From the sequence record ON528729: 64,000 bases of DNA. The stretch is one strand, 5' to 3'. Origin of the DNA: Shigella phage ESh19. How positions within the stretch are numbered: position 1 is the stretch's first letter; every line of letters begins with the position of its first letter. A program made the position numbers and the translations under genes. The notes below the pieces were generated by a model that saw only the letters and a list, made by a program, of their open reading frames with translations, was not told the DNA's origin and made no database searches. Of this stretch, positions 5,869-43,042 are shown one piece after another.

Positions 5869-5970
5869 TTATAAGATAAAAGGCCAAAAAGCAGGGCAAA
5901 GCATAAGTATGATACCTACCCCTACTATGAGCATTACCAATGATGGTATTATCTTGATAACTTTAATCAT
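5869..5970 (-). CDS. possible small hydrophobic peptide (33 aa)
   Basis: hand-translated MIKVIKIIPSLVMLIVGVGIILMLCPAFWPFIL; ends 19 nt upstream of i-spanin ATG; not in ORF track; sits just after a terminator so expression uncertain. Confidence 0.25.
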   Translation of the reverse strand: MIKVIKIIPSLVMLIVGVGIILMLCPAFWPFIL

Positions 5971-15041: not shown

Positions 15042-15549
15042 GATAAGTTGCCTCATAAACTGTCTCAAGCTTCAACAAGAGTGATATTGCCAGAACTGCA
15101 TATTCCCTGTCAAGCATTGGTGGCATATTATTTTTAAGATATGCTTTCTGTTCTTCCCAAGTCATCTTAGGGGCTTCTGGAAGCTTCTCTCCCTGCTTCT
15201 GGTTATCTTCTTGAGTCTGGATAAACCAGTTAGAGCAATGGTGCTCTCCACCTTTTGTCACGGGCTTATGGTGACCTAACGTGAAAGCTTTCTTTCCAGA
15301 ATATCTACAAAGTTTATTAAGGGTTGCAATGGTGTTCTTGACAACACAATATTCATATAGGTTATCAATAGTGTAGTGAGGGTAATACTGGAACAAGGCA
15401 CTGTCACGGAACTTACCACGGTTCCAAAGCACCATGTGATTAGAATTTGAAGGGTCATACTGATGTGACTCGATGAACTCTTGACGCTCATCAAAATCAA
15501 GACGAAGAACAGACATTGCAGCAGCACGTTTCAGATTTGAATGGTACAT
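15034..15549 (-). CDS. HNH endonuclease-like protein
   Basis: LGHHKPVTKGGEHHCSNW fits HNH core (His-His ... Asn with flanking Cys). Confidence 0.45.
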   Translation of the reverse strand: MYHSNLKRAAAMSVLRLDFDERQEFIESHQYDPSNSNHMVLWNRGKFRDSALFQYYPHYTIDNLYEYCVVKNTIATLNKLCRYSGKKAFTLGHHKPVTKGGEHHCSNWFIQTQEDNQKQGEKLPEAPKMTWEEQKAYLKNNMPPMLDREYAVLAISLLLKLETVYEATYHG

Positions 15550-15568
15550 GATTTCTCCAAAATAAAAA

Positions 15569-15588
15569 GGGAACCTTTTACAGTTCCC
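15569..15588 (-). terminator. rho-independent terminator (GGGAAC-UGUAAAAG-GUUCCC + U-run)
   Basis: stem-loop followed by TTTTTATTTT on minus strand. Confidence 0.55.
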
Positions 15589-15601
15589 TAATCATATACG
15601 T

Positions 15602-15913
15602 TTACTGAGCTATTTTCAAGACTTTTAAGAAACCTTCCTCACCAATTGCATCATAAACGTTTTCAGTTGGCTTGATAAGGTTGTTCAAGCATACAATTTT
15701 CTTACGCTTCTTGTCATAAGTAAGCTTCAGTTGTTTCAACTCTTTGTCATCTTCAGGGTGCTCGTTGTACATCTTCACAGCTTCTTTAAAGCTAATGTAG
15801 CCACCACCTAAAGTAAGGAAACCCGTACCACAATAGTGGGAGTTGTGTTTATCAGCCATAAACTGGCACAGGATAGAAATCTGAATTTTACGAGTGTTAT
15901 AAATCTTTTCCAT
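15602..15913 (-). CDS. hypothetical protein (103 aa)
   Basis: ORF. Confidence 0.45.
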   Translation of the reverse strand: MEKIYNTRKIQISILCQFMADKHNSHYCGTGFLTLGGGYISFKEAVKMYNEHPEDDKELKQLKLTYDKKRKKIVCLNNLIKPTENVYDAIGEEGFLKVLKIAQ

Positions 15914-15924
15914 TTTAGTAATCC

Positions 15925-16182
15925 TTACTTGCTACGTTTACGGTTGCGAGCTTTTTTAGCTGCACGTTTAATTGCTGCTGCACCAGTTTGGCGATGAGCT
16001 TGCTTCTTACCACCTTTACCACGTCCAACATGGATGTAAGGTTGCTGTTCAATCTGGCTTGCAAGAACCTGTGCAACTGCTGAAGCATCTACTCCAACCT
16101 GCTTACCAGTCATTGAAACGATAGCTGCTGCTTTTGCCAGAGCCGCTAAGAAACCTGCTTTCATGTTTGAAAAAATACCCAT
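15925..16182 (-). CDS. hypothetical Ala-rich protein with basic C-terminus (85 aa)
   Basis: ORF; C-terminal KRAAKKARNRKRSK. Confidence 0.45.
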   Translation of the reverse strand: MGIFSNMKAGFLAALAKAAAIVSMTGKQVGVDASAVAQVLASQIEQQPYIHVGRGKGGKKQAHRQTGAAAIKRAAKKARNRKRSK

Positions 16183-16197
16183 TTTAATATCTCTCTT

Positions 16198-16476
16198 TTA
16201 AAGTTTAATACAGAACTGGTCTAGTTCTTCTTTTTCAATACAGACTTGTATGTTTCCGTATCTTACATCAGTGAAAAGCATTAGTCCATCCCCAAGTGTT
16301 GATTTTTCTTCAACTGTGAATGTTACCTGCTTAACAAGTGCAGCTAAAGCCGTTAAGCCATTCTCACCAAATTTTTCTTGAGTATAAACCATCCAAGCAT
16401 CAAGCTTGTTGATGTTATAAATCCACTTACCAGAGTAGCTATTCTGCTCTCCATTGACAGTCGCCTTGCCAGCCAT
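16198..16476 (-). CDS. hypothetical protein (92 aa from ATG 16476)
   Basis: ATG 16476 with GGAGA SD; overlaps 3' end of nrdG by about 38 nt. Confidence 0.4.
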   Translation of the reverse strand: MAGKATVNGEQNSYSGKWIYNINKLDAWMVYTQEKFGENGLTALAALVKQVTFTVEEKSTLGDGLMLFTDVRYGNIQVCIEKEELDQFCIKL

Positions 16477-16930
16477 ATTCTTTTCTCCAAAGTATTTGAT
16501 TGTCAGACCCACGATACGGTTTGTGTGTCGGTTTAGAAGCATCATACTTACCATCTATTACCACGTCAACATATTTCATCACTTCTAAGTGAATTTTTTC
16601 ATGTAGCTGGTAACCTGTCCATAACCAGATAGATTTGTCTGGGTAGATAGACCTAACCTTCTGACAAATCTTTGTAACTTCTTCAACGTTACGGTCATCA
16701 AGTGGTTCTCCACCTAGTATGGAAAGACCGCTTATAGCTTCATCTTCCATGAGTCTTAGAATGCCATAAAGGTTTGCATAAGTAAACTCTTTACCAGCAT
16801 TAAACTTCCAAGATTCCTTGTTAAAGCAACCTTCACAGTGATGTTTGCAGCCAGCTACAAAAAGACTGACACGAGCACCTTCACCGTTTGCTGTATCGAA
16901 TTTTCGTATTTCCATGTAGTTCATTAGCAC
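16439..16930 (-). CDS. nrdG: anaerobic ribonucleotide reductase activating protein (radical SAM)
   Basis: CKHHCEGC radical-SAM cluster motif near N-terminus; size ~160 aa; next to nrdD. Confidence 0.75.
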   Translation of the reverse strand: MLMNYMEIRKFDTANGEGARVSLFVAGCKHHCEGCFNKESWKFNAGKEFTYANLYGILRLMEDEAISGLSILGGEPLDDRNVEEVTKICQKVRSIYPDKSIWLWTGYQLHEKIHLEVMKYVDVVIDGKYDASKPTHKPYRGSDNQILWRKEYGWQGDCQWRAE

Positions 16931-17316
16931 ACCCCAACTTCAAACCTTACATGTTTTGTGACGTACTCTTCACAGTGCTCTTTAATAAATTCCTGAAGCA
17001 GCTCATCTTCCTGAGCACGAGTCATCAAAGCAACATACTTTGGATTCATTGTTTGCTGAATGCTGTAGAAAGACATATCACCAATTTCTGTTCCATATGA
17101 ATCTGACCATGTTCCAGTTACTACTAAGACTTTATCACTCAACTCCGTAGGCAGTCCAATGTCATCATCCTTTGCATCATCAATAACAGAATCAGTTATT
17201 AAAAGAGTACATGCTATGTAAAACTCTGAGTATTTTCTGTGAGTTTTCTCACAAGAGCCACACTCTAAAGCATAGTCTTTAAGCCAGTTCATTTGATTTT
17301 TATTTAATTTAGTCAT
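16924..17316 (-). CDS. hypothetical protein (130 aa)
   Basis: ORF; ATG overlaps stop of upstream small ORF. Confidence 0.45.
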   Translation of the reverse strand: MTKLNKNQMNWLKDYALECGSCEKTHRKYSEFYIACTLLITDSVIDDAKDDDIGLPTELSDKVLVVTGTWSDSYGTEIGDMSFYSIQQTMNPKYVALMTRAQEDELLQEFIKEHCEEYVTKHVRFEVGVC

Positions 17317-17410
17317 TTCTCTTTCCTTTCAATGTATTGTATAAAAGCCCTAACAAGAAACCTAGTAAGACAGAGCCTACTAAAGTGACTAACAAGAATG
17401 TCTTAATCAT
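17309..17410 (-). CDS. possible small single-TM peptide (33 aa)
   Basis: hand-translated MIKTFLLVTLVGSVLLGFLLGLLYNTLKGKRND; ATGA overlap with upstream gene and AATGACTAA overlap with downstream gene (translational coupling on both sides). Confidence 0.35.
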   Translation of the reverse strand: MIKTFLLVTLVGSVLLGFLLGLLYNTLKGKRND

Positions 17411-17757
17411 TCGCCATACCACCATATTGTTTGGTTGTTATCACAAACATACAGATACTCTGTCCCGATTTGCGGGACGATGATTGTAGTGTTGCCTGAG
17501 ATGACTGTCATGTAGTACATGTATTCCCTGCTTTGTGATGTTTGCTGGCAATTGTTTGCATTCATCCAAATTCTTGTTTGATAAGTATCATATACTAGAA
17601 ATCCTATCATAATTGCTAATGCAATTCCAAGGAGCCATAACCAAAATTTAGGCCAAAAGTCATAACTTAGCCTATCTTTGTACTTCATAATACCAAGAGT
17701 AATAAGCAATACTAAGCAAGCCAATGTGCAGACTGTAACATAAACCCATACGTTCAT
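17407..17757 (-). CDS. membrane protein with two predicted TM helices (116 aa)
   Basis: hydrophobic segments VWVYVTVCTLACLVLLITLGIM and FWLWLLGIALAIMIGFLVY. Confidence 0.5.
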   Translation of the reverse strand: MNVWVYVTVCTLACLVLLITLGIMKYKDRLSYDFWPKFWLWLLGIALAIMIGFLVYDTYQTRIWMNANNCQQTSQSREYMYYMTVISGNTTIIVPQIGTEYLYVCDNNQTIWWYGE

Positions 17758-17821
17758 AATTATTGCTCCAATAAAAAAGGTGATGTAAGCCTATCAAGAC
17801 CTACACCACCTTGTCAACTAC

Positions 17822-19963
17822 TTACATAGATTTTCTATCCTGAATCTCAGCAATTTTTGCATCGTTCATTCTGGAAGTACCTTTAATCTTAGTCCAGCCA
17901 AGATAACCACATACACGGTTAATCACAGAGATATCATGTGAGTTACACTTAGGACACAATTCAACATCTGCACTTGGACGGTGACCACAATTCTCACAGA
18001 TTGCCAAGTCAAAGTTAACACCTTGATAGAAACCTTTACCCATACCTCTTGTCACACAAGCCCTGATAGCTTTATGATTCTCTGGGTTAGCAATACGAAT
18101 GTACTGGATATGTCCTCCATTACAAGCATGGAAGAAAGGTTCTTCTAAGTCTTGCTTTTCAAATGGTGTAATATCCGCACCAACATTCATGTGGAAACTG
18201 TTTGTAAAGTATTCTTTATCAGATACACCTTTAACAACTCCAAACATGTTTCTAAACTGCTTCAATTGCGTACCACAAAGGCTCTCAGCAGGTGTACCAT
18301 AGAGGGCATACAAGAAACCATCTTCCTGTTTAAACTGCTCCAGCTTGCCATTCAGGTAGTTTAAAACCTTACTTGCAATATCACCGTCTGACTCATGTAA
18401 TCTTTTACCTTGTGCAAGTACTGTTAACTCATCTAATGCAGTAACACCGAAAGAGGCTGTAAAAGATTTCACAGTATCCCAACCAATCTTGTCAGTTGGC
18501 TTCTTATGGCCTTTATACAAACCACCTTGTGTGAATGCTAGAGGGTTAGAGCTTGCTGGCATATTAGCAATCATCTCATAACGCTTTTTATGAAAGCTTC
18601 TAATCATCTCAAGATACTTGTCAAGTTCTGTCCAGAAGTCTAAACCATTCTCTTCAGAATACTTGTAAATCATTGGCAGATTGAGAGATACTGCACCGAT
18701 ATTTGCTCGCCCTGTGTAGAACTCTTTACCATCTTCATCATAATATGGTGATAAGAAAGCCCTACAACCCATTGGAGAGATGACTGCACCTGAACGCTCA
18801 AAAGCTTCTGCAACAGAACCATGACCAGAAACACTTAAGAAGTCTGGATACATAGCTTTAGAACAGCACTCAATAGCTTTGTCATAAAGAGTTCCCTGCC
18901 AAGGGTCTAACATGTGCCTTGTCTCATCATAAATGTAAACCAGTTTAGGGAATACAACAGGCTTCTTAGACTTGCCTTGACCATTCATTCTCACATCAAG
19001 AATAGTCTTTGCAATCATAAATTGCAAGCGGTTATCTTCACTAGCCATATCTGGTTCGAGTAAACCAAACGTTAAAGTTGTGAATGCAAAATCACCACGG
19101 CTGCAAGGAACTGTATTCAGTTTCATTTCCAGAGATTGGAAGCCTTGGGTTAGCTCAATCTGAAGTTGCTCTTTAGCGTAGTGGTATACTTCTTTACTTG
19201 GGATATTATACTGCTTTGCTTTCTCCAGATGATACTCAAAAGACTTCTTAGCATATGGCACAAGAACCTTGTCAATCTCTGGGATAGTAAACCCACCAAA
19301 TTGCTGTGCAGTTGCTGAGAGTACAACGTCACCAATGACCTGTAAAGCTGAAAGTACAGACTTTGGTTCACAGTATTCGATGCCTGACATTTCAAAACCA
19401 CCTTTCAAGACGCTTCCAATGTCAAACAAGCAACAGTTAATACCACCGAAGATTAAATCTCTCAGGTCATGGATATAAATGAATCCATCTTCAATAGCAC
19501 TTGCTTCTTCTGGTGTCAAGTGATACTGCTTAAAGATTTCTTTTGTCAAATATCCACGGATGATTGAGCCTTTTGTAGAGATTAAGCTACTGTCAAAGTT
19601 AGCATTCTCACGGTCACCTAAGAAGAGTGTGTCTTTAGTTTTCTGGTAAAGTTCATCCCAATTCTGTGCAACCTCTTTACGATAGTTTCTGTAGGTTGAG
19701 TATGACTCATAGATTTCATGGTTTACCTCTGCCAGAGTTCCTTCCACAATACTGTGAACATCATCTACAGAGATGAGCATAGCATTCTGATTAGTTGCTC
19801 TGACAAGCAGTCTCATAAAGGCTGATTCAAGAGCATGGATAACTTCTAGTGGTAACTCTTTGTAGCCGACTCTATTAGCTGACTTGGTAACTGCTTCGAC
19901 GATTTTATTTACATTTGGTTTTTCCAGTGAACCGTCTTTCTTAATAATTTGTACTTTAACCAT
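17822..19963 (-). CDS. nrdD: anaerobic ribonucleoside-triphosphate reductase (class III)
   Basis: C-terminal glycyl-radical motif RVCGYLG and Zn-ribbon CENCGH..CPKC; start re-set to ATG 19963 (MVKVQII) with AGGAG SD, directly after terminator. Confidence 0.85.
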   Translation of the reverse strand: MVKVQIIKKDGSLEKPNVNKIVEAVTKSANRVGYKELPLEVIHALESAFMRLLVRATNQNAMLISVDDVHSIVEGTLAEVNHEIYESYSTYRNYRKEVAQNWDELYQKTKDTLFLGDRENANFDSSLISTKGSIIRGYLTKEIFKQYHLTPEEASAIEDGFIYIHDLRDLIFGGINCCLFDIGSVLKGGFEMSGIEYCEPKSVLSALQVIGDVVLSATAQQFGGFTIPEIDKVLVPYAKKSFEYHLEKAKQYNIPSKEVYHYAKEQLQIELTQGFQSLEMKLNTVPCSRGDFAFTTLTFGLLEPDMASEDNRLQFMIAKTILDVRMNGQGKSKKPVVFPKLVYIYDETRHMLDPWQGTLYDKAIECCSKAMYPDFLSVSGHGSVAEAFERSGAVISPMGCRAFLSPYYDEDGKEFYTGRANIGAVSLNLPMIYKYSEENGLDFWTELDKYLEMIRSFHKKRYEMIANMPASSNPLAFTQGGLYKGHKKPTDKIGWDTVKSFTASFGVTALDELTVLAQGKRLHESDGDIASKVLNYLNGKLEQFKQEDGFLYALYGTPAESLCGTQLKQFRNMFGVVKGVSDKEYFTNSFHMNVGADITPFEKQDLEEPFFHACNGGHIQYIRIANPENHKAIRACVTRGMGKGFYQGVNFDLAICENCGHRPSADVELCPKCNSHDISVINRVCGYLGWTKIKGTSRMNDAKIAEIQDRKSM

Positions 19964-20012: not shown

Positions 20013-20213
20013 CTACTTAGAAAACTTTTCAATAAGCTTTTTAAGCTTTCCACTCAAATCATGTTTGATATCTAATATCTCAAAGATAACCCATACTAGC
20101 ATAGCTCCAAATAGAGCACCTTGTTTTAAATCAGTAAACAGGCTAGTAACCATGAATGCCAGAGCAATCATCGGAGCATCTTCAACAAAACCATCCCATA
20201 AACGTTTAAGCAT
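20013..20213 (-). CDS. small membrane protein (66 aa)
   Basis: hydrophobic core MIALAFMVTSLF..LFGAMLVWVIF. Confidence 0.4.
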   Translation of the reverse strand: MLKRLWDGFVEDAPMIALAFMVTSLFTDLKQGALFGAMLVWVIFEILDIKHDLSGKLKKLIEKFSK

Positions 20214-42667: not shown

Positions 42668-43042
42668 TTATTTCTTTTTAGCATTCTGTGTATTTTGTTC
42701 GGTAATTGCTTGTAAAGCTGATACAGACTGTGCTAAGTTGTTCACACTATCTGAGAATTTATCAAGGGTTTTGGTCAACTTAGCGTTCTCCCCTTTAACG
42801 TTCTCTAACTGCACTTTCTGGTTTTCCATCCCTAACTGAAGGAGTTTCATATCAGACTGTAAATCACGAATAGCTGAATAGTTACCTTTTGAGTAACCAT
42901 CCAACTGTTGTAACTTTGTGTTGATAGAAACTTCTTGCTTTCCATCAGAGACCTGCATCGTAGTGTACATACCAATTACACTGAAAATACCTACAACGAT
43001 TGCACCAATATTATTCTTAAAAGCATCTTCAAGCCACTTCAT
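42668..43042 (-). CDS. membrane protein, N-terminal TM + coiled coil (124 aa)
   Basis: TM IGAIVVGIFSVIGMYTT then heptad-rich region. Confidence 0.5.
   Translation of the reverse strand: MKWLEDAFKNNIGAIVVGIFSVIGMYTTMQVSDGKQEVSINTKLQQLDGYSKGNYSAIRDLQSDMKLLQLGMENQKVQLENVKGENAKLTKTLDKFSDSVNNLAQSVSALQAITEQNTQNAKKK

Follow-up and report, generated by a model that had tools for sequence, protein, structure and literature searches.

Organization of the three-gene cassette

This analysis concerns three small genes on the minus strand of a 64,000-nucleotide (nt) stretch of DNA from Shigella phage ESh19 (sequence record ON528729; the whole stretch is referred to here as the window), which lie between nrdD and nrdG, the genes for the anaerobic ribonucleotide reductase and its activase. 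The first gene encodes a 116 amino acid (aa) protein with two predicted transmembrane (TM) segments, assigned by its profile match to phrog_8826 (17407..17757, stop included). The second encodes a 33 aa single-TM peptide (MIKTFLLVTLVGSVLLGFLLGLLYNTLKGKRND; 17309..17410, stop included, with the ATG at 17410 and the stop at 17309-17311) homologous to Felix O1 ORF118, and the third an acidic soluble protein of 130 aa that belongs to phrog_4382, the Felix O1 ORF120 family (16924..17316). Comparison across relatives indicates that the 33 aa open reading frame (ORF) is a protein-coding gene under purifying selection and that the three genes are separable, since each can be found apart from the others and certain relatives lack all three.

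The start of the 116 aa ORF has a GGAG located 8 nt upstream, and its TGA stop is overlapped by the ATG of the peptide (ATGA; junction GGCGAATGATTAAG). The 33 aa start is itself preceded by GGTGG 9 nt upstream. At the other end of the peptide (junction AGAAATGACTAAATT) both the Shine-Dalgarno sequence (AGGA) and the ATG of the 130 aa gene are embedded in its last codons, the ATG falling within the final two of them to give an 8-nt overlap (ATGACTAA). The stop of the 130 aa gene and the start of nrdG then overlap as TAATG, so that four genes are chained. The first-pass annotation had described the two-TM protein, the TM peptide and the overlaps on both sides of it, all of which were confirmed from the sequence, in a chain one gene longer than it gave. 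It had also taken the tight coupling as an argument that the peptide is real; the overlaps are indeed present, but overlapping starts and stops are commonplace throughout this genome, so that coupling by itself is weak evidence and it is conservation that decides.

The neighbourhood is a nucleotide-metabolism cluster (nrdA, nrdB, glutaredoxin, nrdD, nrdG), and every gene of the small-membrane-gene region is carried on the minus strand. Downstream lies nrdG (16439..16924, minus strand; Pfam Fer4_12, 2.8e-43), encoding 161 aa from the ATG at 16924, the same start as in Citrobacter phage Michonne. The upstream flank is nrdD (17822..19963, minus strand), its start being placed by analogy with the 2142-nt Michonne gene; in the ORF list it reaches further, with a GTG start at 20053. 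The gap between glutaredoxin and nrdD encodes a hydrophobic protein of 66 aa (20013-20213, minus strand), the homologue of Felix O1 ORF116, a holin candidate of 2010, and since this ORF overlaps the listed GTG, the nrdD start is more likely at 19963, as in Michonne. The nrdD stop is separated from the 116 aa ORF by a terminator-like hairpin of 16 pairs followed by a T run (17777..17812, minus strand), which lies at the place of an annotated terminator in Michonne and whose T run extends into the GGAG of the 116 aa ORF. The operon is flanked on both ends by terminators, at 17812-17777 and 15589-15568, and an Rfam scan of 15500-18500 gave no match. The window segment is 95.5% identical to the Citrobacter phages Michonne and Mordin (Ounavirinae, Mooglevirus) and is matched by about 250 Felix O1-like records, which identifies the source phage, by sequence, as a Mooglevirus-like member of the Ounavirinae.

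The 33 aa peptide

The nrdD-nrdG intervals compared here were gathered from GenBank relatives and IMG/VR contigs, and the survey of this slot covered positions 16924-17822 of the window together with loci L001-L047, L085 and L086. A peptide core of the form G-S-V-L-L-G-F-x-L-G-L-x-Y was found in 42 locus copies, each after nrdD, and the frame is open in all 42 of the copies that carry the peptide ORF, which include 24 distinct core DNA sequences. Over 29 codons the Moogle-type copies show on average 5.5 synonymous differences and 0 nonsynonymous ones, giving a ratio of nonsynonymous to synonymous divergence (pN/pS) of 0, and the Felix-type copies have a pN/pS of 0.17. For the two alternative sense frames over the peptide the ratio is 0.6-1.7, or cannot be computed because there are no synonymous differences. 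An antisense ORF of 48 aa (17337-17483, plus strand) also overlaps the peptide, sharing its wobble positions, and is open in the Moogle-type copies with a pN/pS of 0.13. It is, however, interrupted by stops in 15/15 Felix-type sequences and therefore cannot account for the conservation of the peptide; the pattern suggests that its open frame probably just follows from the codons of the peptide strand. The first-pass annotation had held the peptide to be real, proposing conservation in relatives as the check and a missing or disrupted frame as the finding that would speak against it, and on this point it is upheld: the frame is under purifying selection and the peptide is intact wherever the cassette is kept.

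Eight residues (S13, L16, G17, F18, L20, G21, L22 and Tyr24) are invariant among copies that are 44-67% identical to the window peptide. The peptide forms one hydrophobic helix with a small-residue face (S13-x3-G17-x3-G21), followed by the tyrosine and a basic tail, and it has one TM segment by Kyte-Doolittle hydropathy (19-residue window >1.6). It probably inserts with its N-terminus out and its C-terminus in. Both this peptide and the 116 aa protein are thus predicted by hydropathy to be membrane proteins, as the earlier annotation had it, the latter also by its AlphaFold2 model.

An alternative reading of 38 aa from an ATG at 17425 has no Shine-Dalgarno sequence at a usable distance. This longer start is seen in the window, Michonne and Salmonella phage S.Kent 1-2-1 and is gone where the upstream gene is deleted; where that gene is missing the peptide begins only as MIKT..., with AGGA before the start. 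Since the 33 aa start is retained without the upstream gene and the 38 aa start is not, the former is the conserved one.

A scan of IMG/VR with a degenerate DNA motif returned 24 Ounavirinae contigs and 5 chance low-complexity matches, and together with the locus comparison this indicates that, among the matches found, the peptide is restricted to the Ounavirinae; tblastn with the peptide as query reached 6 records only, owing to the shortness of the query. Its description as unannotated is correct for Michonne, Mordin, Sf17 and most Moogle-type records and does not apply to HP1, KMM4, pEC-M719-6WT.1, AYO145A and Felix O1, where the ORF is annotated. In Felix O1 it is ORF118 (NP_945000.2, "membrane protein"). 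This ORF and its Felixounavirus orthologues stand, as in the window, directly after the nrdD terminator, and Felix O1 ORF118 shares with the window peptide the core motif, the basic tail and the overlap with the next gene. The window peptide, with its 33 aa and its tail NTLKGKRND, is 44-50% identical to the Felix-type copies; unlike ORF118 it is preceded by a two-TM gene, and it is followed by the 130 aa gene, whereas ORF118 is followed by a gene for a 66 aa membrane protein. The RefSeq model of ORF118 (54 aa; L096 7311-7475) has its start within the terminator hairpin of nrdD and probably overextends the gene, and comparison with relatives suggests that the real product is a 38 aa form beginning at MADSII. 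Elsewhere in the window, another 33 aa single-TM ORF (MIKVIKIIPSLVMLIVGVGIILMLCPAFWPFIL; 5869-5970, minus strand) occupies a gap between two genes, in a stretch most of which is matched only by pEC-M719-6WT.1.

The 116 aa protein and its family

The hydropathy profile of the 116 aa protein shows two TM segments, at approximately residues 1-27 and 34-59, and an AlphaFold2 model (predicted local distance difference test, pLDDT, 78) has helices at residues 3-24 and 34-67 and strands at 71-87, 90-105 and 109-114. TM1 (residues 3-24; 17686..17751, minus strand), defined by hydropathy, the model and comparison with relatives, varies between lineages: the window copy, S.Kent and some Felixounavirus have it, Sf13 and Sf19 lack it, and in Michonne-type phages a separate 60 aa ORF stands in its place. 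TM2 (residues 34-59; 17581..17658, minus strand) is, by hydropathy, model and family alignment, the anchor common to the whole family. The C-terminal beta domain (residues 68-116; 17410..17556, minus strand), as defined by the model and an 18-sequence family alignment, is predicted to be periplasmic. In that alignment C70, T73 and C105 are invariant and W112 nearly so, and the model places C70 at the start of strand 71-87 and C105 at the end of strand 90-105. Given this cysteine pair at the open end of a long hairpin, and a positive-inside loop with K25, K27 and R29, we infer that the beta domain would face the periplasm and be clamped by a C70-C105 disulfide.

The protein matches phrog_8826 with an E-value of 7.1e-38 (residues 30-112 against profile positions 1-81 of 81). 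A full-length copy, 92% identical, is present in Salmonella phage S.Kent 1-2-1, and the beta domains of the two differ by 18 synonymous and 3 nonsynonymous changes (pN/pS 0.04), a sign that this domain is under strong purifying selection. Synonymous divergence (pS) from S.Kent 1-2-1 climbs along the gene, from 0.05 in TM1 to 0.24 in TM2 and 0.57 in the beta domain, which suggests a recombination junction within the gene.

A word-indexed protein search with the 116 aa protein returned 4 clusters, and an exhaustive profile search against 1.8 billion cluster representatives returned 17 members at E<=1e-3, none of them named, nearly all of which are 74-112 aa long and have one anchor, at the N-terminus, followed by the same C-terminal domain. 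Members detected by tblastn, each with a hypothetical annotation, occur in Seuratvirus, Loughboroughvirus and Pectobacterium and Hafnia phages, and a T7-like member gave a reciprocal match. The 116 aa protein is thus a member of a wider protein family of virulent phages, characterized by an N-terminal anchor and a three-stranded beta domain of about 50 residues with two invariant cysteines. The phrog_8826 members Michonne gp14, Seurat gp77 and ZCSE2 QBZ70555 resemble the window protein in having the anchor, the two-cysteine beta domain and an early or DNA-metabolism location; the window protein differs by its extra N-terminal TM helix, which it shares only with S.Kent 1-2-1, some Felixounavirus and the representative P0005. 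Elsewhere, members of the family lie between nrdD and nrdG (contig L054), after DNA ligase (a T7-like contig) or beside dUTPase, and the Seurat member sits in an array of small hypothetical genes.

Variation of the nrdD-nrdG slot and the 130 aa protein

At least eight arrangements of the nrdD-nrdG interval occur in the Ounavirinae. The two-TM protein, the peptide and the 130 aa protein stand together in the window and S.Kent. In Michonne, Sf17, Henu12, HP1, KMM4 and KMM2 the order is a 60 aa ORF, a one-TM protein, the peptide and the 130 aa protein; Sf13 and Sf19 have the one-TM protein, the peptide and the 130 aa protein; and Moogle, IME338 and pEC-M719 have the peptide and the 130 aa protein. 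An HNH endonuclease precedes the peptide and the 130 aa protein in phiSUSP1 and SFPB. Felix O1 and most Felixounavirus have the peptide, a 66 aa two-TM protein and a 131 aa protein, and allfine, Meda and two contigs (L034, L039) have the two-TM protein, a 71 aa two-TM protein and the 131 aa protein, with no peptide. The cassette is missing altogether in ESCO56, where 64 nt separate nrdD from nrdG, and in GEC_vB_BS, which has an endonuclease only. HNH homing endonucleases are inserted in phiSUSP1, SFPB, GEC_vB_BS and several IMG/VR contigs, and the window copy has none. These comparisons identify the nrdD-nrdG gap as a recombination hotspot for the exchange of small membrane genes and homing endonucleases.

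In Moogle, phiSUSP1, SFPB, IME338 and most Felixounavirus the peptide is present and the two-TM gene is not; allfine, Meda, L034 and L039 have the two-TM gene and no peptide. The upstream ATGA overlap is therefore not conserved. The sole constant junction is the overlap of the peptide with whichever gene comes next.

In Moogle-type phages the gene after the peptide is the 130 aa gene, whose product has no TM segment by hydropathy. Its family is also found alone in T7-like phages of about 40 kb (Przondovirus and others), between the gp5.5/5.7 genes and the exonuclease (L087 1501-1884). The protein gave a confident model (pLDDT 91), and a structure search with it returned no convincing neighbour. 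A role as a redox or metal partner of NrdD/NrdG was considered and dropped, since the CxxC of the 130 aa protein is not conserved. GenBank records name members of this family 'tail tube protein' (HP1, Pr103Blw) or 'putative DNA methylase' (Henu12), names for which the present data give no support.

Interpretation and possible functions

We tentatively favour, at somewhat less than even confidence, the reading that these genes form a dispensable accessory cassette in the variable nrdD-nrdG slot, consisting of three separable genes and supplying inner-membrane envelope factors rather than lysis proteins. The anatomy in this reading is well supported and the function is a guess. Its dispensability agrees with PhageMaP data in which a Bas63 segment with the ribonucleotide reductase genes was uniformly nonessential on four hosts, a result at the level of the segment, in a phage whose form of the cassette is not confirmed. 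The cassette would be transcribed with the early or middle nucleotide-metabolism genes, judging by its neighbours, and the 116 aa protein and the peptide would be accessory factors of the inner membrane with the infected cell's envelope as their site of action. The periplasm-facing beta domain might bind a periplasmic or inner-membrane target, most plausibly blocking the entry of a second phage, and the peptide might work by packing its helix, within the membrane, against a further copy of itself or a different membrane protein, for which its S13/G17/G21 face appears suited.

The proposal of blocked entry is made by analogy. T4 Imm, T4 Sp and HK97 gp15 are superinfection exclusion proteins that are small, non-essential, directed to the inner membrane or periplasm and expressed before the late genes. 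The likeness of the cassette products to them would be one of logic only: no sequence or fold similarity to them was detected, no Pfam, NCBIfam or PADLOC family above threshold places the cassette products with Imm or Sp, and we know of no counterpart of the two-cysteine beta-hairpin domain in T4 Imm, T4 Sp or HK97 gp15.

Several points weigh against the accessory-cassette reading. The topology and the disulfide of the 116 aa protein are predictions, and its model, with a pLDDT of 78, was built from an alignment of four sequences only. A natural chimera in the Shigella phage vB_SflM_004 (P0004) carries the domain without the first conserved cysteine; it joins the N-terminal part of the 66 aa membrane protein to the phrog_8826 beta domain. 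Scans of all three proteins against Pfam, NCBIfam and PADLOC gave only sub-threshold, TM-driven matches, a PDB sequence search with the 116 aa family profile gave no match, and a BFVD fold search with the 116 aa model found only uncharacterised viral proteins, so that no homology in the Pfam, NCBIfam, PADLOC or PDB sequence searches ties any of the three genes to a function; above threshold, the PHROGs scan of the three proteins reached only families without an assigned function. The early timing is suggested by the gene neighbours only, no Ounavirinae transcriptome having been found in the literature, and our literature search likewise turned up neither exclusion studies nor holin experiments on Felix O1-like phages. 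Finally, tiny TM ORFs recur beside members of the beta-domain family, which argues for a possible cooperation between the peptide and the beta-domain protein.

This last point speaks for the alternative that survives best, namely that the beta-domain protein and a tiny single-TM peptide cooperate as a two-component membrane module, for example by docking of the peptide on the anchor helix, with the separation seen in the Ounavirinae explained by secondary loss or by a swap for a 66-71 aa two-TM partner. The first-pass annotation had described the genes as such a module, and in the window they are in fact translationally coupled; the peptide also accompanies the beta-domain gene in 11/11 of the Moogle-type locus copies that have the latter, and in Felixounavirus a 71 aa membrane protein follows the beta-domain gene instead of the peptide. 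In other lineages single-TM ORFs of 28-31 aa adjoin family members: upstream in Seuratvirus (Seurat76, 28 aa, and its SD04 homologue), in Loughboroughvirus (ZCSE2, 30 aa, annotated) and in an uncultured relative (contig L053, 28 aa), and downstream in a T7-like contig (L090; 31 aa, called, with a TAATG overlap). As a crude baseline, 280 ORF-defined genes yielded 9 such micro-ORFs (approximately 1-2% per gene side), 3 of the 9 being the very family-adjacent cases counted. An obligate pairing is not, however, what co-occurrence across the relatives shows, since the peptide and the beta-domain gene each stand alone in many Ounavirinae, and it is in this respect that the module description does not hold within the subfamily. 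There is no adjacent micro-ORF in CAjan and nine other contexts (including L048, L051, L052, L054 and L091-L094), the micropeptides of separate lineages have no detectable similarity to one another, they stand on differing sides of the family gene and their tails are oppositely charged. The three upstream cases may trace to one evolutionary event, and the enrichment was spotted post hoc. The 31 aa L090 peptide looks by eye like a homologue of the Ounavirinae peptide (S-x3-G-x3-G-Y), but it scored 3.4 bits against the profile of the latter, which is background. We therefore consider a cooperating pair unlikely on present evidence. A broader proposal, that a phrog_8826 protein and an abutting 28-33 aa single-TM micropeptide make up a recurrent two-part inner-membrane system of virulent Gram-negative phages, independently assembled or exchanged among Ounavirinae, Seuratvirus, Loughboroughvirus and T7-like phages and serving the envelope in some way not yet described, for instance by superinfection exclusion of a new kind, appears more doubtful still and is offered as speculation.

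A role in lysis, as a holin/antiholin pair or another lysis-timing function distant from the endolysin, was among the candidates of the first-pass annotation, and we find it the least likely of the functions proposed there. The idea is not new, since Whichard et al. (2010; PMC3185647) named Felix O1 gp118, with gp116 and gp119, as possible holins, going by TM criteria alone. The products do have the small size, TM helices and charged C-terminus expected of such proteins, the 116 aa protein has a weak, sub-threshold match to a holin PHROG (E 0.036), and the two possible starts of the peptide in the window (38 and 33 aa) superficially resemble a dual-start motif. In T4 the holin need not be linked to the endolysin, and T4 RI, whose gene is not beside the endolysin gene, combines an N-terminal membrane segment with a periplasmic domain. 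Moreover, no holin is established in Felix O1-like phages, none having been identified by the authors of Meda, and Felix O1 being without a lysis cassette. Like the holins and antiholins lambda S105/S107 and T4 T/RI, then, the cassette products are small membrane proteins; they differ from them in being dispensable in natural isolates, in lying within the nrd operon and in having no conserved dual start. A lysis gene would be expected throughout the lineage, yet the whole cassette is missing from ESCO56 and GEC_vB_BS and the two-TM gene from many further relatives. The cassette sits between two terminators, away from the late genes, and the 116 aa family also takes early or DNA-metabolism positions in other phages, including T7-like and siphophage genomes, unlike holins. 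The 38 aa start, which has no Shine-Dalgarno sequence and is lost where the upstream gene is missing, does not amount to a conserved start pair of the lambda type. The putative class III holin proposed by the annotators of Michonne sits after the tail fibres, and a lysis role for the cassette is, in our view, very unlikely. At 42668-43042 (minus strand) of the window, a 124 aa ORF ending the tail-fibre operon is the homologue of that Michonne protein, gp57 'putative holin', and belongs to phrog_4038, which has no PHROG function; its product is a better-placed holin candidate than those of the cassette genes.

Hardly credible, finally, is the suggestion that the peptide ORF is mainly a translational coupling device or a chance spacer ORF that passes ribosomes from the terminator-proximal start to the 130 aa gene and nrdG and whose product is functionless: the last peptide codons (AAA GGA AAG AGA AAT GAC TAA) do include the Shine-Dalgarno sequence and ATG of the next gene, as the Felix-type tail does for the gene following it, and with the upstream gene deleted the peptide is the first ORF past the nrdD terminator, but the TM core, with which no other signal overlaps, is under purifying selection (0 nonsynonymous against a mean of 5.5 synonymous differences in Moogle-type copies, pN/pS 0.17 in Felix-type copies), the eight invariant residues persist among copies just 44-67% identical to the window peptide, and ESCO56 expresses nrdG without any such ORF.

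Implications for the Ounavirinae

Both membrane proteins belong to families that were already known and are uncharacterised. The 33-codon gene missed by most Mooglevirus annotators is a real one and the same gene as Felix O1 ORF118, and the cassette can be struck from the shortlist of missing Ounavirinae holins. The practical value of these results is modest; Felix O1-like phages serve in Salmonella typing and biocontrol, so that knowing which of their accessory genes are dispensable aids engineering. Should it prove true that the beta-domain family and the micropeptides exclude other phages, this would bear on the design of phage cocktails.

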